Shown here one piece after another: positions 1,949-12,711 of a stretch of DNA of 21,023 bases. The notes beneath the pieces were generated by a model. That model saw only the letters and a list, made by a program, of their open reading frames with translations. It had not been told where the DNA came from and searched no databases. The position numbers were made by a program, and so were the translations under genes. The stretch comes from Chlamydiia bacterium (lineage in GTDB: Bacteria > Chlamydiota > Chlamydiia > Chlamydiales > Parachlamydiaceae), in contig JBBSJT010000032.1 in assembly GCA_038257035.1 (NCBI GenBank), positions 1 through 21,023 on the forward strand, written 5' to 3'. Every line of letters begins with the position of its first letter. Position 1 is the first letter of the stretch.

Positions 1949-2359
1949 GGGGGTGTCAAGGTTTCGACTGGGGAACGAACCATTAGTTGCATGCAGAGGA
2001 TTTCGGTTGGCCTCTTTAATCATCCGATAAAAAAACAAATGCTAACAAAAATAGCAAACTTGTTGCCGTTAACTTTGCTCCTGCAGCAATGGCTAACGCA
2101 GCATAAGTGACTTTGGGACCTAACGGTCCCGGTTGCGTGGCAGCCTGTAAGTGGACCTAGGCTTTTCAGGATCTGCCATAATCGACTAGGTATGGTTTGG
2201 TACCCGAGCTTCTAGGGAATCAAGTCAAGATTAAATGAAGACCGTTAACTTCAGTGACCGTGTTCTGCATAGGGGTTAATTAAACAAAATAGAACACTAA
2301 GCATGTAGTGGCTAGTATGTAGTTTGCTTAGGACGAGAGTTCGATTCTCTCCACCTCCA
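1949..2359 (+). ncRNA. ssrA: tmRNA (one-piece); tag peptide ANKNSKLVAVNFAPAAMANAA encoded at 2041-2106
   Basis: 5' end GGGGGTGTCAAGGTTTCGAC; T-arm GAGAGTTCGATTCTCTC; acceptor strand CACCTCC plus discriminator A, giving the G3-U alanine determinant. The tag ORF resumes at GCT and ends in AA-stop. CCA is not encoded. Confidence 0.96.
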
Positions 2360-2513
2360 AATTTTACTGTTATATAACGCAAAAGGCCCATATAGGGTCC
2401 AGATTTTAGTCATCGTGACGAAGGTAAACCTCATGGTTTATCAAGGAGCGATGATCTAAAAGATGGGCCTTATATGGGCCTTTTGCGTCTATAAAAGTAA
2501 GATTTGGAGGTGG
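2351..2513 (+). repeat. Long imperfect palindromic repeat, copy A (163 bp), overlapping the last 9 nt of tmRNA
   Basis: Left arm CCACCTCCAAATTTTACTGTTATATAACGCAAAAGGCCCATATAGGGTCCAGATTTTAGTCATCG pairs with right arm CGATGATCTAAAAGATGGGCCTTATATGGGCCTTTTGCGTCTATAAAAGTAAGATTTGGAGGTGG. Apical hairpin TAAACC-TCAT-GGTTTA. Confidence 0.93.
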
Positions 2514-3919: not shown

Positions 3920-5641
3920 TTAAGTCCATTCATGCTTGCTTAATAATGTAAGAATCTTTTCTTTTTCTTCATCATTCAATAAAAGGGTATGAATGCCATG
4001 AACAGCTAATGCACCTGGCAAATGACCTTGCTTATTTCTAATATTTCTGTCTGCACCTAGTTTAAGTAAAAGTTCTATAAGTTCAATATTACCGGCGCCT
4101 ACAGCTGTATGTAATGCAGTGTTGCCCTCTTCATCTTGAATATTAAGATTAGCTCCATATTTTATTAATGCCAATGCAGCATTTTTACTTTTTTCTAAAC
4201 CTTCCGCCACATAATGCAAGGGTGTTTTTCCATCAATATCTTGCATATTTACGGATGCTCCGCCCTCAAGGAGCGCTATAATGATTTCATTCATTTGGTT
4301 GTCATTTTCTGTAGCAACTTTCTCTGCTGCATAGTGTAATGCTGTTTTGCTGGAAAGATCAAGGATATCAATGATGCAATTTGCTTCAATGAGCTTCTTT
4401 ACAATCATTAAAGAAGATTTTTTTCCTCTTTCAATTGCAGTATGCAGAGCTGTCTGCCCTTTTTTATCCTGAATATTTACTCCAATTTTTTCCGTTACAA
4501 GTAGATCAATTCTTTGTAAATCTTGGGTATTATTTGCATACTGAACCGCAGAGTGTAATAAAGTTTTTCCATCAAAATTGCGAAAATTTATATTTTCTGC
4601 TTTTTTCAAGAGTAATTTTAATGACTCCATTGATATCTTTTGCGACTCAAATGCCTTATGTAGAATCGAATTTTCCTTTTTTTCTTCAATAATATTGGGG
4701 TTAGCTCCGACTTCAACCAAACCTTCTATAGCCTCATTAGCTCCTCGAAGACAAGCCCAATAAAGAATTGGATGGTGCCAATAATTGGAATTGGGATCAG
4801 CTCCATACTCAACTAAGAGTCTGATTGATTCTTTTGAATTTGTGATAACCGAAATCATAAGAAGAAGAGGACTGATGTTATCAAGTTTTGGCAATATATT
4901 TTTAACAAAAGCTATTTGTTCGATACTTAAAGCTACCTTAAGCATTTCTTCAATTCTTTTCTGCTCTTTTATTTTACTCTCATCATCAAAAACAGGCTCT
5001 AGTTGATGACCTTGAAGCATGGCCTCAAGAAGTTCAATTTTATATTTTTTTACCTCTAAATGAAGGGCTGCTTGCTGATCAACTCTTGAATAAGCATTAA
5101 GCGAGATGGCATTGGAAGCAATCATACTCACTTTTTCAAATAAAGATTTATTATCCCAAGAGAGTTCATATTGCCCTAATTCATCAAGTTTTGCTTCGAT
5201 TTTACTTTGTATGAAATTTATTTTTTTTATAGTTTTATCTTTCCAGACTGCGGTTGTGTAATGTGAATGATTTATTGAAACCATTAAGGAATTTTTACTA
5301 GTTATTCTAAATTTATCTTCATCTGTGAAATCTTTGGATAAATTTTGCTTAACTAACTCCTTGATCGAATCTACTGAAAGAAATTTGGAATCAATGTTTA
5401 AATTTTCTTCCTCGGTATTTATTACTGTCGCATACAATTTTTTTAGTGTAATCGGTGTATTCAAATCAAGTTGACTTAATCTAATTTTAGCATCCTGAAT
5501 ACTGGATGAATCTGCCATATAACCTTCTACAGATAACTTAAAATTTTTTCCATCTATAATAAAATTGCCCCCCTCTTTTGTTTCCAAAAGCCGAACTTCA
5601 TACCAACATTGATCACCTTTTAAAGTAATATCAAAATTCAT
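3920..5641 (-). CDS. Ankyrin-repeat protein with an uncharacterised N-terminal half; putative host-directed effector
   Basis: Multiple ankyrin motifs in the C-terminal half (GKTLLHSA, GQTALHTA, SKTALHYA, GKTPLHYV, GNTALHTA; GA(D/N)xN turns). GAGG RBS. The effector role is inference. Confidence 0.9.
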   Translation of the reverse strand: MNFDITLKGDQCWYEVRLLETKEGGNFIIDGKNFKLSVEGYMADSSSIQDAKIRLSQLDLNTPITLKKLYATVINTEEENLNIDSKFLSVDSIKELVKQNLSKDFTDEDKFRITSKNSLMVSINHSHYTTAVWKDKTIKKINFIQSKIEAKLDELGQYELSWDNKSLFEKVSMIASNAISLNAYSRVDQQAALHLEVKKYKIELLEAMLQGHQLEPVFDDESKIKEQKRIEEMLKVALSIEQIAFVKNILPKLDNISPLLLMISVITNSKESIRLLVEYGADPNSNYWHHPILYWACLRGANEAIEGLVEVGANPNIIEEKKENSILHKAFESQKISMESLKLLLKKAENINFRNFDGKTLLHSAVQYANNTQDLQRIDLLVTEKIGVNIQDKKGQTALHTAIERGKKSSLMIVKKLIEANCIIDILDLSSKTALHYAAEKVATENDNQMNEIIIALLEGGASVNMQDIDGKTPLHYVAEGLEKSKNAALALIKYGANLNIQDEEGNTALHTAVGAGNIELIELLLKLGADRNIRNKQGHLPGALAVHGIHTLLLNDEEKEKILTLLSKHEWT

Positions 5642-5764
5642 ATAAACCTCACAATTAAATAGACTATATTTGTATTATACAACTAATTACCGTAATATAG
5701 AAACTATTAATTACAAAACCAAACCTAAATTACAAATCCCAAGTTACTTCATAGGAAGCTATCG

Positions 5765-5828
5765 CCAAACCGGGCATTACCAACACACGGTTTTAGTCTA
5801 AACCGTGCATTGACAATACACGGTTTGG
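5765..5828. repeat. Doublet of ~31-bp palindromes (REP-like)
   Basis: CCAAACCGGGCATTACCAACACACGGTTTTAG (5765-5796) and CTAAACCGTGCATTGACAATACACGGTTTGG (5798-5828). Each is self-complementary and they resemble each other. Confidence 0.7.
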
Positions 5829-6100
5829 TATGGCAGAGAAATAAAGAGATTTTCCCGGTGAAGTGTTTTCTTTGAATATTTGGGCATCACTACTGATAAT
5901 TTTCAGACTCAGTAAGGTTTATAATTTTTTTCGGCTTCGCCGGTTTATATGGATGAATCTATTATGCTTGCATACACATGTCTTTTTCTCATTTAACATC
6001 TAAACTTTAACCGGAAGGATGCCTCTCTCCTCGCTAAAGTTTTTGATTTTTAAAAAGAACAAAGAACAAAATCCAAAGGCCCTTTCCAAGGGTCAAAGGT

Positions 6101-7051
6101 TCAAGTGCAGATGGACTTCCTAGCGCAAGAAGCGCCAAGCGAGCTAAAATTGAACATGTAGTCGAAGTCGTCGGAGTCGTAGACTACGAGACCGAGGGCA
6201 GAAAAGCTGCCAACTGCTATTGGATAACCCCCGCTATTTTGCTCCTGAACGTGCGTATACGTCCTCTGGTGACCATTTGATCCGTCAGAGTAAACAAAGT
6301 CACCTGTTTGCAAATTGCGCAGCAAAATGCTTACTACTGCATCTATCAGGTTGGGGATTTCAAATCCGGCTTCCTTAACGAGTTTTTCTTGAATCGAAAA
6401 ATTCTTATTTCTCGTTCCATTTACAAGATCGGCACAACCCAACACATCTTTAGATAACATAACCCAATGGGATTTAAAGGGCTTTACCGTTTTATCATTG
6501 ATATCATAATCACTTAGCAGATATCGATAATTGCTTCTGAATGCATCTTTACCGTTTTTATAGTCACTGACAAATCGGTCAAAACTGCTTAATGTAAGCT
6601 CCTCTCCATTGATCGTTTCCGGAATGAACGTAAGCATCCACTTAGAAGAGTCAAAGTCTTGGATCATTTTTAATGGAAGATAGGGTTCAGCTCCGGGATT
6701 TCCACCATAAGATATCCACTCTGCCTTACCAAAACAACCTTCCGGCCGGTAACTTTTAGCATAATCATTAGTCAACTTATTAAGCGATTGACTTAGCACA
6801 GATAAGGCTACTAAATCCGGTTTGCTGTGCTTTAAAACTTCATTCCATACATCTTGAGGAAAAAACGGTATCTCATGAATTGGTTTATTGTCTGTATTGT
6901 CGGGTTTAACCGAATTAACGGGATAATCCATCGAGTGAAGGGCGTTGTCGCCATCCACAATTGTACCTCCGCTTTGTGGCCATAGCGAGTTTATAGCATT
7001 ATTAAAATCTACAACACTATTATAAATACAATCATAAACATTCATATTCAC
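6101..7051 (-). CDS. Hypothetical protein with an F-box-like segment (aa ~61-93) and a C-terminus resembling a DGR target variable region
   Basis: FPQDVWNEVLKHSKPDLVALSVLSQSLNKL fits the F-box pattern. It is followed by FGKAEWISYGGNPGAEPYLP, and the C-terminus is VGSFSALGLVVYDSDDFDYMFNFSSLGASCARKS. Domain calls are by eye. Confidence 0.75.
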   Translation of the reverse strand: MNMNVYDCIYNSVVDFNNAINSLWPQSGGTIVDGDNALHSMDYPVNSVKPDNTDNKPIHEIPFFPQDVWNEVLKHSKPDLVALSVLSQSLNKLTNDYAKSYRPEGCFGKAEWISYGGNPGAEPYLPLKMIQDFDSSKWMLTFIPETINGEELTLSSFDRFVSDYKNGKDAFRSNYRYLLSDYDINDKTVKPFKSHWVMLSKDVLGCADLVNGTRNKNFSIQEKLVKEAGFEIPNLIDAVVSILLRNLQTGDFVYSDGSNGHQRTYTHVQEQNSGGYPIAVGSFSALGLVVYDSDDFDYMFNFSSLGASCARKSICT

Positions 7052-7075
7052 CTAGAATTTATTAATTTAGTTCAG

Positions 7076-7105
7076 AGTATACTTTAATAAAAAAATAAAA
7101 GTCAA
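7076..7105 (-). promoter_or_regulatory. Putative sigma70-type promoter of the 6101-7051 gene
   Basis: Minus strand TTGACT (7105-7100), 18-nt A/T-rich spacer, TATACT (7081-7076). Confidence 0.55.
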
Positions 7106-7151
7106 CAACAGTTTATAACAACAGTTTAGAAAACTGTAGATAACAGTTTAG
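7104..7151. repeat. Short 12-13-bp repeats with an AACAGTTTA core
   Basis: AACAACAGTTTAT, AACAACAGTTTAG, an inverted AAACTGT, then AACAGTTTAG, directly upstream of the -35 element. Confidence 0.6.
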
Positions 7152-7199
7152 ACTTTTTGTGCCGCCAAAATAGAAATTTCCGCTTTTAGAGCAAAATAA

Positions 7200-7340
7200 A
7201 GTGATGCAAGTGCTTATGCAGCGCGCGATAGATTGGTCGTAAACTGTACAATCACTATCCCTGAATTTGAAGACTTCTCAGCAAGCAGTGATTATTCCGA
7301 CTGGAATGATTTGGTGCGGGAACAGGGCACCAGGCAGTCC
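7200..7340 (+). pseudogene. Relic of the C-terminal end of a TOPRIM domain (mobile-element primase/TraC-TraA type)
   Basis: Frame after the stop at 7197 reads SDASAYAARDRLVVNCTITIPEFEDFSASSDYSDWNDLVREQG, matching the P-x-F...DWNDL...G ending of plasmid/ICE TOPRIM domains. No start codon with an RBS; locally more GC-rich. Confidence 0.5.
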
Positions 7341-7376
7341 GAACCAAAAGAAGGCAGGAATAAAAAATGTAACGAT

Positions 7377-7531
7377 CAGATTTTTTTCATCGTTAAGAAG
7401 GTAAACCTAATGGTTTATTGAGGAGCGATGATCTAAAAGATGGACCTTATATGGGCCTTTTGCGTCTATAAAAGTAAGATTTGGAGGTGGGACCTCCAAG
7501 CATTAATTTTATATAACGCGCAAGACCGTAT
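7377..7531 (+). repeat. Dispersed copy of the tmRNA-linked palindromic repeat (5'-truncated A-type unit plus the left arm of the next unit)
   Basis: GGAGCGATGATCTAAAAGATGGACCTTATATGGGCCTTTTGCGTCTATAAAAGTAAGATTTGGAGGTGGGACCTCCAA has one mismatch to 2445-2522. Confidence 0.93.
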
Positions 7532-7625
7532 CCCCAAAAATCGTAAAAGCCTATCACTTTGGATAAGCTTTTTGATTTGATAGGGGTTATTCTCTTTCAA
7601 AGCTTACTTTAGAAATGGATGCTTT

Positions 7626-8966
7626 TTAAACCAAGCTAAATTCTTCCTTGAAAATATACTCAAGGGGTACACCTGCTTCTAAAAGCTGCTTTTGCAGCGC
7701 ATCCATCATCGGCTTAGGTCCGCACATTAAAAATACTTTATTTGAAAGATCTCCCCCCACCGCTTCCTTGATTATATCTGCAGTAATATAGCCCTCCTTT
7801 TCTGCGCAATGTAAAATACTATGAAAATGATCGTTACCTGCATCAAGCTGCTTAATTTCATTCCGATAATAATCTTCACCTTCCTTGTTATAACTGTAAA
7901 AAAGGTAAACCTCGTTTCTTTCTTTTGATCGGAAAAGAGTGTCATTTATTATGCTTAAAAAAGGAGTAATTCCGATCCCGCCTCCAATTAGCACAGCCTC
8001 TTTGTCAGCATGTTCAAAATAACGATTGCTAAATTTTCCGTAAGGGCCCCAAATATATGCATGATCACCCTTTTGCAATTGATTTATTTTTTTTGTCCAA
8101 TCCCCCAATTGCTTGATTGAAATCCTTAAGTATTCCGATCGAGGTTCTGAAGAGATGCTAAATGGATGGGGTTCTGAACTTAATTCGGGAGAATCAAAAT
8201 AAATATAAATAAACTGACCTGGTAGATGAATCAGGCTGCGATAGGGCAGGTGAGGCTGCAAATAAATTTCTGTAATATCACCTAATTGCTCAACATGGTG
8301 TACAACATAGTCATGAAGTGGACCAAACCAGCGATACAGCACTCGAATATATAAAAAACTAAAAAGTCCCATGCCCACCCAAAACCCAAACCAACCTAAA
8401 AGAAAAGGATAGGTCATGATCTCACCTTGTGCTGCAATCGCATGGAAGACCACCAATAGCAGTAGTAATCCGAAAAAGTTGTGCGTCTGTTTCCAGCGGT
8501 GATAGCGCATCGGGATCCAAAGCGAAAAAGCTACCAACAATATAAACATTAAAAGCGCTGCAATCCCGCTCATTCGTGCAATATAATAATGCAGCTCTTC
8601 TTTGGGCAGATAATCTATCCAAAAGAAACTAAAAAAATTAAACTTAGGATCTAAGGCTAAAAAGATCGGATGAAGAAAAATAAGAAAAAAAGCTGATTCA
8701 CCAACCCATCGATGCGCTTTGTAAACCTTGTCCAAACCTCCAAATAAATTCTCAATAAAATGAAACCTTGTTGCAAGCAAAAAAGCCCAGCACATGAGCA
8801 TCGTTGAAGTCAGGCTTCCTATCTTAGCCCAATATTTCAACTTATATTCATACCAAGTATCATAGTACCACATTGATCCGAAGTAAATTGCCAAAGTTGC
8901 AATCAGGCTAAGAAAAATGACAAAATAACCCCAATAATATTGTTTTTTAAAAATGGAAGCCATCAT
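7626..8966 (-). CDS. Ferric-reductase-like membrane flavocytochrome (bacterial NADPH oxidase, SpNox-like architecture)
   Basis: Transmembrane N-terminal part with two His pairs (YKAHRWVG...FLHP; WKQTHNFFG...VFH). FAD motif HPFSIS, GPYG, NAD(P)H motif GGGIGITPF, CGP and terminal EEF. AGGAG RBS. Confidence 0.9.
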   Translation of the reverse strand: MMASIFKKQYYWGYFVIFLSLIATLAIYFGSMWYYDTWYEYKLKYWAKIGSLTSTMLMCWAFLLATRFHFIENLFGGLDKVYKAHRWVGESAFFLIFLHPIFLALDPKFNFFSFFWIDYLPKEELHYYIARMSGIAALLMFILLVAFSLWIPMRYHRWKQTHNFFGLLLLLVVFHAIAAQGEIMTYPFLLGWFGFWVGMGLFSFLYIRVLYRWFGPLHDYVVHHVEQLGDITEIYLQPHLPYRSLIHLPGQFIYIYFDSPELSSEPHPFSISSEPRSEYLRISIKQLGDWTKKINQLQKGDHAYIWGPYGKFSNRYFEHADKEAVLIGGGIGITPFLSIINDTLFRSKERNEVYLFYSYNKEGEDYYRNEIKQLDAGNDHFHSILHCAEKEGYITADIIKEAVGGDLSNKVFLMCGPKPMMDALQKQLLEAGVPLEYIFKEEFSLV

Positions 8967-9231
8967 CTTTCTCCTAAAAAATTCGCAAGATTTAAAATAA
9001 CCGAACCATACTTGGCCTTAGCTTGAGCCTCTTATTGCTATTATAACTCTGGCATTTTTCGATTATTTATTCACCTTATTTATAGGTTCTACAGTCGCTT
9101 ATTTCACAAATCTCAAACGGTGTCTGCGAGGCAAAGAAATAAATCTCTGACCGAAATCTTCAAATATTAATTCTAAAGGTATTACAGGTGATAACATCTC
9201 TTGTAAAGGCCTGAAAAGAATCGATCGTTGG

Positions 9232-9439
9232 AGTTTTTTTTATAAAATATAAAAGGCCCGTATACTGTCCAGATTTTTGTCATCACGACGAAGATAAACC
9301 TTATGTTTGTCGAGGAGAGATGATCTAAAAGATGGGTAGAATACGGGTTTTTTGCATCTATAAAAGTAATTTTTTTTTTTGGGGGGGGGTGGGAACCTCC
9401 AAGCATTAGTTTTATGTAACGTAAAAAAGACCCGTATTT
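9232..9439 (+). repeat. Dispersed copy of the tmRNA-linked palindromic repeat (B-type unit plus the left arm of the next unit)
   Basis: CACGACGAAGATAAACCTTATG-TTTGTCGAGGAGAGATGATCTAAAAGATGGGTAGAATACGGGTTTTTTGCATCTATAAAAGTAA is nearly identical to 2576-2662. The junction is altered to T11-G9-TGGGAACCTCCAA. Confidence 0.92.
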
Positions 9440-9463
9440 GGCTGGTGATTTTCTCCTTAAATC

Positions 9464-9831
9464 TTAAATCATTTTTATTTGTGCATTCATAGAATTATGG
9501 AATTCTTTTTCACTTTCGATTTTAAAAATCTCGATTTGTAAGTTTTTTTTTAAAATTGCCTCTTTTTGGCAAATTTCTGTTTTTATTTTTAAAATTTCAA
9601 AAACAATTTCTATTGGAAAGGAATTAATAATTGAGTTTTTTGAAATTTTTTTACCTGAAAAAAATATCATAGATTTGCTCATTTCCAATTTTTCATTTTC
9701 AGCATAGGAACAATCTGATTTATTTCCCAAGCTTTCATTTTTTCATCAACTTTTGTATGAATCATTCGTCGCTCTATGCCTATTAAAAAGTCACTTTTTA
9801 CTCGAACATCATACATTTCTATTTTATTCAT
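9464..9831 (-). pseudogene. Probable frameshifted small gene (or two coupled mini-ORFs) with an F-box-like motif
   Basis: AGGAG RBS and ATG at 9831 give a 50-aa ORF (MNKIEMYDVR...KNWK, stop 9681-9679). It overlaps ATGA-style with a second frame (ATG 9682 to stop 9464) containing INSFPIEIVFEILK. Confidence 0.45.
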
Positions 9832-9950
9832 ACTTTTCTCCTATTTTTAGAAGATTTATATCATTTTTTTTGAACATTGTAAAAAGAATTAAAAAAAGTT
9901 CTAATTTTAACGGCCTTTTGGTACATAACTGACAGGCCACAAAAAAGGAA

Positions 9951-10664
9951 ATGACTTTGAAAAATAATCCACGAATTGGCACTGCGGGTTGGAATCTTCC
10001 TGCCGAAGCTCAAGATAATTTCCCTATAGGAAAAAGTCAGCTGGAAAGGTATTCACAAGTATTTAATGCTGTTGAAATTAATAGTTCATTTCATAAAGCT
10101 CACAAAAAAACAATTTATGAGCGTTGGTGCGATTCTACACCTGAGAATTTTCAATTTTCAGTAAAAATGTTTAAAGAAATTACTCATAACAAAAAATTAA
10201 TTGGTGTTGAAGATGATTTGGATAAATTCTTTCAGGAAATTGCAGGCCTAAAAAATAAACTTGGGATTCTTTTAATTCAATTGCCTCCAAGTCTAGTTTT
10301 CGAGCAAAACAGGATAGATATTTTTTTTGAACTTTTAAGAAAAATGTTTGATGGAAAAGTTGTTATAGAGCCAAGAAATAGTTCATGGGCTGAAAGTACT
10401 CCTCAGAACATACTAAAAAAATATGATGTTTCTTATGTAAAAGCCGATCCGATTAAGTTCACAATAAATGCTAAACAAACTTTAAAATATTATAGATTGC
10501 ATGGCTCGCCTTTAATCTATAAGTCATCATACGATGATCAATTTTTGAAAAAAATCGCAAAAGATTTAACCCCTTCATCTTGGGTCATTTTCGATAACAC
10601 ACAATTTGGAGCAGGTACACAAAATGCTTTAGATTTAAAACAATTGAAAAAAAATAGTGGATGA
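9951..10664 (+). CDS. DUF72 (YecE/YunF family) protein
   Basis: IGTAGW, YSQVFNAVEINSSFH, FSVKMFKEITH, LIQLPPS, IEPRNSSW, YYRLHG and VIFDN family motifs. Confidence 0.9.
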   Translation: MTLKNNPRIGTAGWNLPAEAQDNFPIGKSQLERYSQVFNAVEINSSFHKAHKKTIYERWCDSTPENFQFSVKMFKEITHNKKLIGVEDDLDKFFQEIAGLKNKLGILLIQLPPSLVFEQNRIDIFFELLRKMFDGKVVIEPRNSSWAESTPQNILKKYDVSYVKADPIKFTINAKQTLKYYRLHGSPLIYKSSYDDQFLKKIAKDLTPSSWVIFDNTQFGAGTQNALDLKQLKKNSG

Positions 10665-10891: not shown

Positions 10892-11536
10892 TTATTCCTC
10901 GAGAAAGGAAATTCCCCAAACGCTAAAAACTTTTTGAAGGTTTAGAGTTTCAGGTTTTCCTTCAATTTTATCTACCAGGGTACAAAGAGAAGATATGAAA
11001 TGCTGTTGCGCTTTGTAAAAAGATTCGGTATTTTCCTCATGAATCTGACTAAGTATGTCATTATACAAACGATAATAATAAAGAAGCGCCCCTGCATCAT
11101 CCTCGAAGTAAAACTCCCCTCTTCCACCTGTTTCTATCGATTTTTCAGTTTGTTTAGGAGAAAATTTTACCAATTGACCAGAAGCTAAAATATTGACATC
11201 CCCTTCTTCTGAAACAACTTCGTTAAGGCATATAATATTAATCGCTGAAATCGTGATGTTTGTTTTTGATTTTATAGGAGCAAGAAGGATCAGGCTCCAA
11301 TCTTCACAATTAAGGTTAATAGGTCCCTGCGATTCTAAAGGAGCATGAACAATGGCGAACATGGAACCATTGATTGAAATTAATCGCAATTTTTGATCTT
11401 GATCGCTTTTCGGGAACGCAATTTCTAAGTGAGCATTTTTAGGGGGGGTTGATTCTTCCATCAGTCTATCCATTTCCATTGTTAAAAAGTGAATTTTACC
11501 AAGAAAAACTCTTTTAAAACAAGAATTTAAAATCAA
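10892..11536 (-). CDS. Hypothetical protein; start uncertain (alternative ATGs at 11479, 11473 and 11461)
   Basis: 214-aa ORF with protein-like composition, overlapping the ATPase stop (ATGA). No recognisable motif. Confidence 0.7.
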   Translation of the reverse strand: MILNSCFKRVFLGKIHFLTMEMDRLMEESTPPKNAHLEIAFPKSDQDQKLRLISINGSMFAIVHAPLESQGPINLNCEDWSLILLAPIKSKTNITISAINIICLNEVVSEEGDVNILASGQLVKFSPKQTEKSIETGGRGEFYFEDDAGALLYYYRLYNDILSQIHEENTESFYKAQQHFISSLCTLVDKIEGKPETLNLQKVFSVWGISFLEE

Positions 11537-12711
11537 AAATCGGGCATTGCTCGCATGATAAATTCATTAAAAAGAGGCACTGTAAAGGCGATATTGCCGT
11601 AAGTTGGGCTGTATATCATTCCTTTTTTAATCAAATGGGATCTTACTGGACTAAGACTTGATAAGCTAACATTTAGTTCATTAGCAATTAAGCTTAGTTT
11701 GTAAGGTTCTTCACCAAATTTTGCCATTGTACGTAAAAACACTTTTTCATTTGGCGTAAGACGATGAAAGCGCACTTTAAAGAAATTTTCATCAAGACGT
11801 TCGATCACTTTAGAAGTACATTCTTTAACATTTTTAATTGTAATTGGAGTTGATGCAACTGTATTCCAGATCAAATATCCCCATTCCTGAAGAAAGTAGG
11901 GATAACCTTGAGTTAAACGAACAATTTCATCTAATGCATCCTTATGAAAATCAACACCACCGGCTTTTGCAGGTTCTTGAATTGCTCGCATAGCATCTGT
12001 CTCTGATAATGCTCCAACCTTTGGAAAATTAAACAGTCTTTCTGCGTATGATTTGGAATCTCCGGCCAATCCTAATAAAACAGGAAGTCCTGCCCCCATA
12101 AGAAGCATAGGCAATCGTCGTTGCTGAACTTTATGCATTGCCATAATAAGAGCGCCTAATTCTTTTTTAGTTAGATATTGAATTTCATCAATGAAAATAG
12201 CAACGGCAGATTGTCGATCTTCAGCAGCCTCGCCAATAGCAACAAACAATTGAGGTAAATCTATTTCAATATCGCCACTATCGGCCGATCCTTTTTCAGG
12301 ATCAATATCTATTCCTATAGAGATATCTTTAAATGTAATTTTGAAGGCTCCTACAAAACTGCGAAGAACAGCTAAAGCCCTTTTTGCTTTAAACCCAAGT
12401 CCGGCTTTTCTATCTAGAGCATATAAAAGTTTACAAAGATAAGGAGCAAGAAGAGCACCAAGTGATTTGTCACTGTGCGCTTCAACAGAAACCGTGTGAT
12501 AGTCTAATTTCTCGGCACGTCTTTCTATTTCATTCAATAAAACTGTTTTTCCAACACCTCTAAGTCCAGTCAGCAGTATACTTTTTTCAGGTCTTCGAGC
12601 AAGGATTCGTCCAAGTAAAATATCAGCTTGTTGAAGAATTGGATCTCGACCTACAAGTTCTGCAGGCGGAGCACCGGCTCCCGGTGAATAAGGATTATTA
12701 ATTGGATTCAT
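11533..12711 (-). CDS. P-loop AAA ATPase (AAA_16/archaeal-ATPase-like) with a C-terminal winged helix-turn-helix
   Basis: NPYSPGAG N-terminus, Walker A GLRGVGKT, Walker B IFIDE, TQGYPYFLQ, and C-terminal LSLIANELNVSLSSLSPVRSHLIKKGMIY (wHTH-like). Confidence 0.88.
   Translation of the reverse strand: MNPINNPYSPGAGAPPAELVGRDPILQQADILLGRILARRPEKSILLTGLRGVGKTVLLNEIERRAEKLDYHTVSVEAHSDKSLGALLAPYLCKLLYALDRKAGLGFKAKRALAVLRSFVGAFKITFKDISIGIDIDPEKGSADSGDIEIDLPQLFVAIGEAAEDRQSAVAIFIDEIQYLTKKELGALIMAMHKVQQRRLPMLLMGAGLPVLLGLAGDSKSYAERLFNFPKVGALSETDAMRAIQEPAKAGGVDFHKDALDEIVRLTQGYPYFLQEWGYLIWNTVASTPITIKNVKECTSKVIERLDENFFKVRFHRLTPNEKVFLRTMAKFGEEPYKLSLIANELNVSLSSLSPVRSHLIKKGMIYSPTYGNIAFTVPLFNEFIMRAMPDF

Follow-up and report, generated by a model that had tools for sequence, protein, structure and literature searches.

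A C-rich F-box gene tail in a Parachlamydiaceae genome as the very probable variable region of a diversity-generating retroelement

How a bacterial F-box gene came to end in a tail crowded with codons that close in C, and whether whatever wrote that tail is still at work, are the questions raised by a stretch of 21,023 nucleotides (nt) of Parachlamydiaceae DNA (GenBank assembly GCA_038257035.1, contig JBBSJT010000032.1, positions 1 to 21,023), hereafter the window. The window is contig C32 of a 2.37-Mb assembly (G000) in 210 contigs, 95.8% complete. A reading made earlier from the letters of the window only, hereafter the sequence-only reading, had proposed that the gene joins an F-box to a C-type-lectin-fold domain, and that this domain carries the variable region (VR) of a diversity-generating retroelement (DGR). 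Our analysis leads to the conclusion that the tail is very probably a region written by a DGR, to which we give a probability of about 0.9. That the copy in the window is now an orphan, a frozen relic of such an element, is the state we favour, with less assurance.

According to the mechanism that we propose, a reverse transcriptase (RT) would copy a nearby template repeat (TR) into complementary DNA (cDNA), misreading its adenines, and the cDNA would replace the VR of a target gene. AAC-type codons of the template would give NNC codons, and the ligand-binding face of a C-type-lectin-fold domain could be recoded without the appearance of stop codons. The resulting protein would be a hypervariable domain joined to an F-box, conceivably a secreted adaptor that presents a varying set of host proteins to the SCF ubiquitin ligase of the host. 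In the window genome the element would subsequently have been lost, and the copy in the window would have been frozen.

The gene lies on the minus strand at 6101-7051, with its TGA stop at 6103-6101. From the list of open reading frames (ORFs) and their translation, it encodes 316 amino acids (aa) starting from GTG at 7051, while an alternative ATG at 7045 gives a protein of 314 aa that is 100% identical to P0002 (314 aa). A recount of the last 36 sense codons (6211-6104) bore out the codon bias that had been described: 21 end in C, 10 in T, 4 in G and a single one in A. Among the other 280 codons of the gene 46 end in C (0.16), and the genome-wide share is 0.158 in the 976 stop-free frames of at least 300 codons of G000, all of which were taken as background and some of which may not be genes. 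When G000 is divided into 12,977 non-overlapping blocks of 36 codons, at least 15 NNC codons are found in 28 blocks, at least 18 in two, and at least 21 in one. The bias is real and extreme, and chance is no explanation for it. Nine consecutive NNC codons (GTC TAC GAC TCC GAC GAC TTC GAC TAC) occupy 6184-6158 of the minus strand, as had been stated; this is the sole run of five or more in the gene, the second longest being of four codons. The C-terminal peptide also reads as it had been quoted.

The VR-like segment comprises 33 codons, G281 to S313 (6113-6211, minus strand), and is defined by the NNC bias and by the stretch common to TR and VR in relatives, the limits of homology being taken from the related genomes G031, G004 and G005. 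Within it, protein and codon alignments delimit a hypervariable loop of 17 codons, V289 to L305 (6137-6187, minus strand), which contains the NNC run; most close relatives have 12 codons there. The segment closes with the conserved AGG AAG TCC (6113-6121, minus strand), the point at which homology to the TR ends, and all VRs of the relatives have AAGTCC where the corresponding TRs read AAATCC. Logan contigs from four runs leave the bin 6140-6188, which covers the loop, nearly uncovered, and the run with the most words (0.47) has no contig over 5650-6286.

The window gene belongs to a large family whose members share this signature. The window protein has paralogues in G000, where a profile of its C-terminal domain gives 25 matches; P0001 has matches in 11 of 31 related genomes, G000 counted, and 38 homologous metagenome clusters were retrieved at E ≤ 0.001. 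In the family alignments a hypervariable loop of about 10-17 residues, rich in N, D, Y, S, G, H, C, F, V, A and R, separates VGGFSALGLxV from (I/L)GA(S/A)CARKS. In nine subfamily relatives the loop has 12-14 codons, 7-10 of them NNC, while NNC codons make up about 15% of the remainder of the genes; this count covers the nine of 16 genes in which the loop could be delimited by pattern, the window gene being among the seven that did not match. Over the VR columns of 14 subfamily genes the third bases are C 247, T 125, G 34 and A 12 (C 59%, A 3%), while upstream of the VR in the same genes they are C 357, T 873, G 451 and A 658 (C 15%, A 28%). Pairwise differences at the three codon positions amount to 0.41/0.37/0.30 in the VR and 0.235/0.213/0.309 upstream. 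By this count the first two positions of the VR vary more than the third, the reverse of ordinary coding sequence.

Relatives provide the machinery. Judging from similarity and position, G004 and G005 keep an RT, an Avd and a template repeat next to genes of the family. The common order is the target, an RT gene convergent to it, avd divergent from the RT, and the TR past avd on the RT strand. This order, seen at L048 of G005 (5846-9257), L061 of G004 (7988-10507) and L042 of G031 (12259-12614), is unusual for a DGR in that avd shares the strand of the target and lies antisense between TR and RT. In G005 an RT of 348 aa (RVT_1, 84.7 bits), an Avd (Pfam bAvd, 67.5 bits; NCBIfam equivalog DivGenRetAVD, 81.4 against a cut-off of 80) and a TR running from 9257 to 9161 were located in L048, TR and VR being 83% identical over 104 nt; the sole VR of this genome has 5 extra nt, which break the frame of the target. 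In G004 the RT has 345 aa and the Avd 125 aa; a single TR and nine VR-like copies are present, and four of these copies are remote. Mismatches of its local VRs to the TR fall at 13 of 26 adenine sites and 1 of 69 other sites in the first, and at 13 of 26 and 2 of 69 in the second; for the remote copies, which lie on other contigs or 470 kb away, the corresponding figures are 15/26 and 8/73, 10/22 and 2/67, 15/26 and 6/70, and 10/18 and 4/49. Some VRs of G004 hold in-frame extra codons relative to the TR (+3, +3, +6 and +12 nt); such insertions of 3, 6 or 12 nt against the single TR occur across the loci L061 and L065-L070.

The third genome, G031, is an uncultured Parachlamydiaceae metagenome-assembled genome with tandem arrays of family genes whose tails have column-fixed third bases. 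An RT ORF lies inside one of these arrays (L041, 8037-8861; RVT_1, 67.5 bits), and an adenine-tolerant scan revealed a template repeat present twice on the opposite strand of L042. Compared with this TR, 14 distinct VRs show 167 mismatches in 294 cells where the TR has A and 54 in 910 cells elsewhere, counts that include two last columns past the homology and without which they become about 153 in 280 and 53 in 896 (rows read by eye). For the nine VRs on the TR's own contig there are 105 mismatches at TR adenines and 10 elsewhere. The TR copies (L042, 12259-12614 and 18151-18506) each adjoin only the last 15 RT codons and the last 57 Avd residues, and the only long RT ORF of G031, in L041, is without some 80 N-terminal residues; the VRs of this genome still differ from the TR almost only at adenines.

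With the G031 RT as query, tblastn located homologues in several loci, each directly following a family gene and convergent to it. G002, labelled as of the same genus as G000, has an RT 74% identical to that of G005, convergent to a family gene and cut by the contig end; a search of its genome for a TR returned the VR itself only. RT fragments occur in G012 and G031, and no TR was found near the RT of L049. The best PDB match of the RT is 8ub7, a 328-aa chain named only 'Reverse transcriptase' (E 5e-37), which we take to be the Bordetella phage enzyme, while group II intron RTs follow at 4e-22. LGNVTSQ and YCDD were read by eye in the RTs of the relatives, and the SQ motif is a mark of DGR RTs. 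Thus relatives within the family adjoin a DGR-type RT, an Avd and an A-rich TR, and their VRs differ almost only at TR adenines, in agreement with the proposed nature of the tail.

The domain that carries the segment also resembles known DGR targets. No Pfam or NCBIfam model matches the C-terminal domain, residues ~118-316 (6104-6700, minus strand); Pfam FGE-sulfatase has no match in the window protein, and phmmer of the protein against the PDB gave chance-level matches only. An AlphaFold2 model built on alignment A4 (20 sequences) has a mean predicted local distance difference test score (pLDDT) of 80.3 and a predicted template modelling score of 0.75, with low confidence confined to residues 1-59 and to loop 297-301; the latter residues, inside the hypervariable loop, have pLDDT below 50. 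Comparison of the domain with 48,161 chains by VIA-align assigned it an FGE/C-type-lectin-like fold: the match to EgtB has Z 8.5 (145 residues aligned, root-mean-square deviation (rmsd) 3.5), SenA Z 7.7 and pFGE Z 7.2. Solved DGR variable proteins are in the same list, with TvpA at Z 7.2 (148 aligned), Mtd at Z 6.7 (120 aligned) and TaqVP at Z 5.0, followed by invasin, intimin and many C-type lectins, the list being almost uniformly of one fold class. Foldseek against the PDB gave nothing at E ≤ 0.001 and a weak list of mostly C-type lectins. In the ESM Atlas the nearest feature clusters are unnamed proteins of the candidate phyla radiation (score 0.96), which we treat as a lead only. According to the model, then, the VR-like segment of the window protein stands at the C-terminus of a C-type-lectin/FGE fold, as had been anticipated.

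The N-terminal part contains a probable, divergent F-box at residues ~57-101 (6749-6883, minus strand), recognised by family profile and fold. The Pfam F-box match on the window protein itself reaches E 0.035 and 14.5 bits, under the cut-off of 20.5; at E ≤ 0.01 the model matches 3 of 28 subfamily members, and family members in G031 and G002 exceed the Pfam cut-offs (24.4-31.8 bits). With the A4 family profile, 27 of 29 matching PDB sequences are F-box proteins (best E 1e-3), Legionella AnkB (5k35) among them. Furthermore, VIA-align superimposes residues 57-101 of the model on the Skp1-bound F-box 5ibk_E with Z 5.5 and an rmsd of 2.0 over 45 residues. The proposed fusion to an F-box thus finds support from both profile and fold. 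Residues 1-36 (6944-7051; M..Y.Y.YN.VVD.NNAINS.WPQ) share 42-54% identity with the N-termini of two further G000 proteins, on contigs C152 (468-572) and C127 (695-808), whose C-terminal parts differ; this shared stretch of about 36 residues may be a common leader or secretion signal.

The DNA just past the VR contains elements of its own. Directly downstream lies a tract of TTGR repeats (TTGAA, TTTGA, TTGGA, TTTGGA, then TTTGTTC twice; 6052-6112, minus strand). Among 14 flanks from G000, G002, G004, G005, G031 and metagenome loci, 11 contain 4-9 TTGR per 90 nt; shuffled sequences average 0.9-1.9, and no more than 16 of 1000 shuffles reach the observed count; the window has four (14 of 1000 shuffles as high). 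Two of the three exceptions are probably mis-anchored by the script and the third has a different downstream sequence. Conservation of the tract extends over subfamilies and genera, the TRs lack it, and it may be a cis signal that marks a target; to our knowledge no described DGR element has the form of TTGR repeats. It was also noticed just past VRs in L042, L041, L040, L061, L048 and L016.

Inside this tract, 8 nt past the stop, is the hairpin CCCTT-GGA-AAGGG (6080-6092, minus strand), also recorded by the terminator scan and present, with TTTGTTC twice beyond it, where the sequence-only reading had placed it. A role as a conserved recognition element is not supported. Its middle pair forms in one of nine aligned relatives with no compensatory change, and 71.1% of cells are paired compared with 70.3% in shuffles; on this alignment the hairpin is not conserved as a structure. 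A second hairpin, CCGGC-GAA-GCCGG (5931-5943; CCGGCGAAGCCGG in relatives), with flanking A and T runs, was found by terminator scan, alignments and folds. In relatives this hairpin, which is the conserved one, sits between the convergent target and RT genes, 170-190 nt downstream of the VR in the window subfamily, and it looks like a bidirectional terminator.

What, then, is left of the element in the genome of the window? For a DGR-clade RT, PF00078 has no match in G000, the G005 RT protein retrieves no candidate, and tblastn with two RTs gives nothing at E ≤ 0.1; tblastn likewise detected no Avd (best E 0.075). None of the 210 contigs, their ends included, yielded an RT or Avd fragment. By blastn (word size 7) and adenine-tolerant scan, the tail recurs in G000 only in the paralogue on contig C27, and an ungapped adenine-tolerant scan with 12 VR queries of the genome and all loci gave only A-rich noise and known paralogues. 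The near-copy and RT gene that the sequence-only reading had suggested looking for were not found in the G000 assembly, and are present in relatives. The site that the convergent RT gene occupies in relatives is, in the window, intergenic DNA (5642-5930) in which no RT or Avd remnant was detected, with an ankyrin-repeat gene next to it; a tblastn search of 5600-6110 with RT and Avd as queries returned nothing above noise (E ≥ 4), and the same was true of the search for remnants downstream of C27.

Because no RT, Avd or TR was found in the G000 assembly, the window copy is most likely a relic, and the earlier suggestion of a fossil or remote target agrees with this absence. Metagenome loci of the window's own subfamily offer stages of loss: in L024, L026 and L027 the RT is spread over three frames, and in L027 Avd ends at residue 85, followed by unrelated DNA, with no TR in 6 kb. 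L034 and L035 retain about 100 aa of RT, and tblastn with RT found none in L022 or L030 (flank up to 10 kb). As far as these loci tell, the cassette of this subfamily is decaying. Moreover, the NNC counts in the last 36 codons of the 21 domain copies of G000 are graded: 21 in C32, 17 in C27 and C5, 14 in C30, 13 in C69, 12 in three copies and 2-10 in the remaining 13, the background lying at 5-8 and about 5.7 being expected (0.158 × 36). This gradation would fit VRs frozen at different times and eroding under AT pressure. A block of G002 syntenic with contig C46 of G000 stops about 1.6 kb before the G002 target gene, and is uninformative on the loss of the cassette.

Several observations weigh against a DGR-written, since orphaned, tail. 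The fold scores of 7-8.5 are middling by the tool's own scale. The loop of the window is five codons longer than that of most relatives, and its ATG, TCG and GTA codons do not derive directly from an AAC-type template; since VRs of G004 hold in-frame extra codons, the five additional codons by themselves are no evidence against a DGR origin. No TR of the window subfamily is present in the sequences searched, and the adenine-specific differences were measured in relatives only. Concerning the loss, G000 is in 210 contigs and the RT of the same-genus G002 stands at a contig end, so that an unassembled cassette is possible; at 95.8% completeness and in 210 contigs, the absence of an RT from G000 is not proven. 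Remote targets exist in G004. Finally, the ~130 nt past the stop are ~93-95% identical between C32 and C27, as estimated by eye, which exceeds the mean column identity of 79% over the whole alignment; this identity suggests recent constraint or gene conversion, which would run counter to an old loss.

The alternative that best withstands the data, and which we nevertheless consider unlikely, is that the VR remains an active remote target, rewritten in trans together with that of C27, and perhaps that of C5, by a working RT-Avd-TR cassette that was not assembled or binned. The remote VRs of G004, with their A-biased differences on other contigs and at 470 kb from the single TR, speak for this possibility, as do the fragmentation of G000, the truncated G002 RT, and the fact that, between C32 and C27, VR framework and 3' flank have diverged far less than the upstream coding sequence; in addition, the window copy has the strongest NNC signal among the G000 copies. 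Against it stand the lack of any RT or Avd fragment over all 210 contigs, ends included, at such completeness, and the nearest relatives with an adjoining cassette, in which this cassette is broken.

It is far less credible that no DGR was involved, and that the loop, rich in NNC codons, Asp and Tyr, is a surface loop of a paralogous family shaped by slippage of short units containing GAC and by ordinary diversifying selection. The near-repeat GAC TCC GAC / GAC TTC GAC and the 15 nt by which the loop exceeds those of relatives would be accounted for in this way, and binding sites often have loops rich in Y, D, S, G and N. However, the bias spans the whole 33-codon segment, conserved scaffold included, and recurs in every relative; third bases are fixed per column while positions 1-2 vary; and in three related genomes a TR accounts for exactly such a pattern. 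The weakest proposal, that the C-rich tail reflects an overlapping antisense gene (NNC on one strand being GNN, a common coding pattern, on the other, an argument from reasoning only), a structured RNA or foreign DNA, can be set aside as hardly plausible, the antisense and RNA readings having been rejected. There is no plus-strand ORF of at least 60 aa between 5006 and 7233, no Rfam family matches at the tail, the tail is common to whole-gene homologues, and the rise in GC content is modest (0.41 in the 1-kb interval 6001-7000 over the gene, 0.31-0.38 in neighbouring ones).

Beyond the window, the work reveals a DGR family in Parachlamydiaceae with F-box proteins as targets, of which no description was met in the literature searched. 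The C-terminal domain itself is widespread: at E ≤ 0.001 its profile matches 3,263 representative clusters, of which 669 remain at 1e-30. Pfam was used to scan the N-terminal partners of 30 proteins picked from the best 150 domain proteins, long ones being favoured. Five have a U-box or RING (one also an F-box), four a PARP domain, one a protein kinase and one a NACHT domain; ankyrin, TPR, a trypsin-like peptidase and SidM_N with DUF294_C (two proteins) also precede the domain, and 11 proteins have no match. Most inspected domain proteins end in the tail YTRCQE...VVGGF..GL.V-loop-G.G.LRKF. These fusions were examined at the protein level, and the sole named protein among them is from Candidatus Neptunochlamydia vexilliferae. 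Some proteins among P0040-P0187 hold up to six copies of the domain.

The domains joined to this C-terminal domain, the F-box here and U-box, PARP, kinase and protease elsewhere in Chlamydiae, are of the kinds that intracellular bacteria employ within their eukaryotic hosts. As a tentative proposal, one to which we would not yet give even odds, a chromosomal DGR of Parachlamydiaceae might continually rewrite the substrate-recognition tip of host-directed effectors, F-box adaptors and perhaps U-box, PARP, kinase and protease proteins, providing an antibody-like repertoire with which an obligate intracellular bacterium could choose the host proteins that it ubiquitinates or modifies; as one such adaptor, the window gene would be frozen or served in trans, and the TTGR tract would be a new target-recognition signal. 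If this is true, host-directed effectors would be subject to targeted hypermutation, amoeba symbionts would have a means of adapting rapidly to their hosts, and programmable protein degradation would gain a natural scaffold. The fast birth and death of chlamydial F-box families, as treated in the main text of Domman et al. 2014 (PMC4209131), would in part be accounted for as well. The window alone tells a more modest story, that of a variable region that is well preserved but whose writing machinery was not found in the assembly.

The surroundings of the gene can be briefly described. A promoter-like site, TTGACT-18-TATACT (7076-7105, minus strand), lies upstream; it was found by consensus scan with 10 of 12 matches and is a pattern match only. 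The downstream neighbour, in the position of the RT in relatives, is the eukaryote-like ankyrin-repeat protein gene (573 aa; Pfam ankyrin; 3920-5641, minus strand). On the other side, a 446-aa protein with ferric-reductase transmembrane, FAD-binding and NAD-binding domains, an architecture like that of NOX, is encoded at 7626-8966 (minus strand). Further away are a tmRNA gene (1949-2360, plus strand; Rfam RF00023, 155.9 bits) and, at 10892-12711 (minus strand), a gene for a 392-aa AAA_16/STAND-like ATPase whose end overlaps the start of a 214-aa ORF without a family match.

Among known systems, the prototype is the DGR of phage BPP-1 (mtd-avd-TR-brt), in which a hairpin or cruciform lies just downstream of the VR and in which the ends of VR and TR are distinguished as initiation of mutagenic homology (IMH) and IMH*, a concept of the DGR literature. 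As in BPP-1, relatives of the window genome have RT, Avd and TR, VR variation is almost confined to TR adenines, the VR is at the extreme C-terminus of a protein with a predicted C-type-lectin fold (Mtd, Z 6.7), and a fixed base tells the VR end (AAGTCC) from the TR end (AAATCC). Unlike BPP-1, the host is an obligate intracellular chlamydia-like bacterium and not a phage, the target is a protein with an F-box and not a tail fibre, and the order in relatives is target, convergent RT, divergent avd, and TR past avd on the RT strand. Furthermore, no conserved GC hairpin immediately follows the VR in the window subfamily (one of nine, no covariation), its place being taken by the TTGR-repeat tract, and in the window genome no machinery at all was found. 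TvpA of Treponema denticola (2y3c, Z 7.2, 148 aligned), a surface lipoprotein, and TaqVP of Thermus aquaticus (5vf4, Z 5.0) share with the window protein the FGE-type fold and the C-terminal VR, but there is no detectable sequence similarity to them and the window protein has a probable F-box.

The main text of Domman et al. 2014 (PMC4209131) describes a eukaryote-like chlamydial F-box superfamily with large paralogous expansions in Parachlamydiaceae, to which the window family is akin, since it too, like Legionella AnkB, consists of F-box proteins of amoeba-associated bacteria. In the families described there the F-box is combined with LRR, TPR or ankyrin, whereas here the partner is a C-type-lectin-fold domain with a tip that is very probably a DGR variable region; the words 'reverse transcriptase', 'retroelement' and 'hypervariable' do not occur in that main text. 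Conversely, 'Chlamydia' and 'F-box' are found neither in the text available of Kaur et al. 2020 (PMC7159879) nor in the main text of Wu et al. 2018, and 'Chlamydi' is absent from the 13 supplementary files searched, of 15, of the 2021 DGR survey. In the accessible parts of the DGR papers found, Chlamydiae appear as a taxonomic label only, and no paper linking DGRs to Parachlamydiaceae or to F-box targets was found in a search that left out most subscription journals. According to the available portions of the surveys and of Kaur et al. (PMC7159879), the described DGR targets are for the most part receptor-binding proteins of phages, surface proteins of bacteria or sensors in intracellular conflict systems. 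A parallel comes from the latter: as reported in the available text of Kaur et al. 2020 (PMC7159879), DGR-coupled FGS domains of bacterial conflict systems are always C-terminal, behind diverse N-terminal domains, and the domain reported here likewise stands behind U-box, RING plus F-box, PARP, kinase, NACHT, trypsin and SidM_N-like domains. The FGS systems, as presented there, belong to free-living multicellular bacteria and are read as sensors against invaders, whereas the partners of the present domain are of the kind used against eukaryotic hosts.

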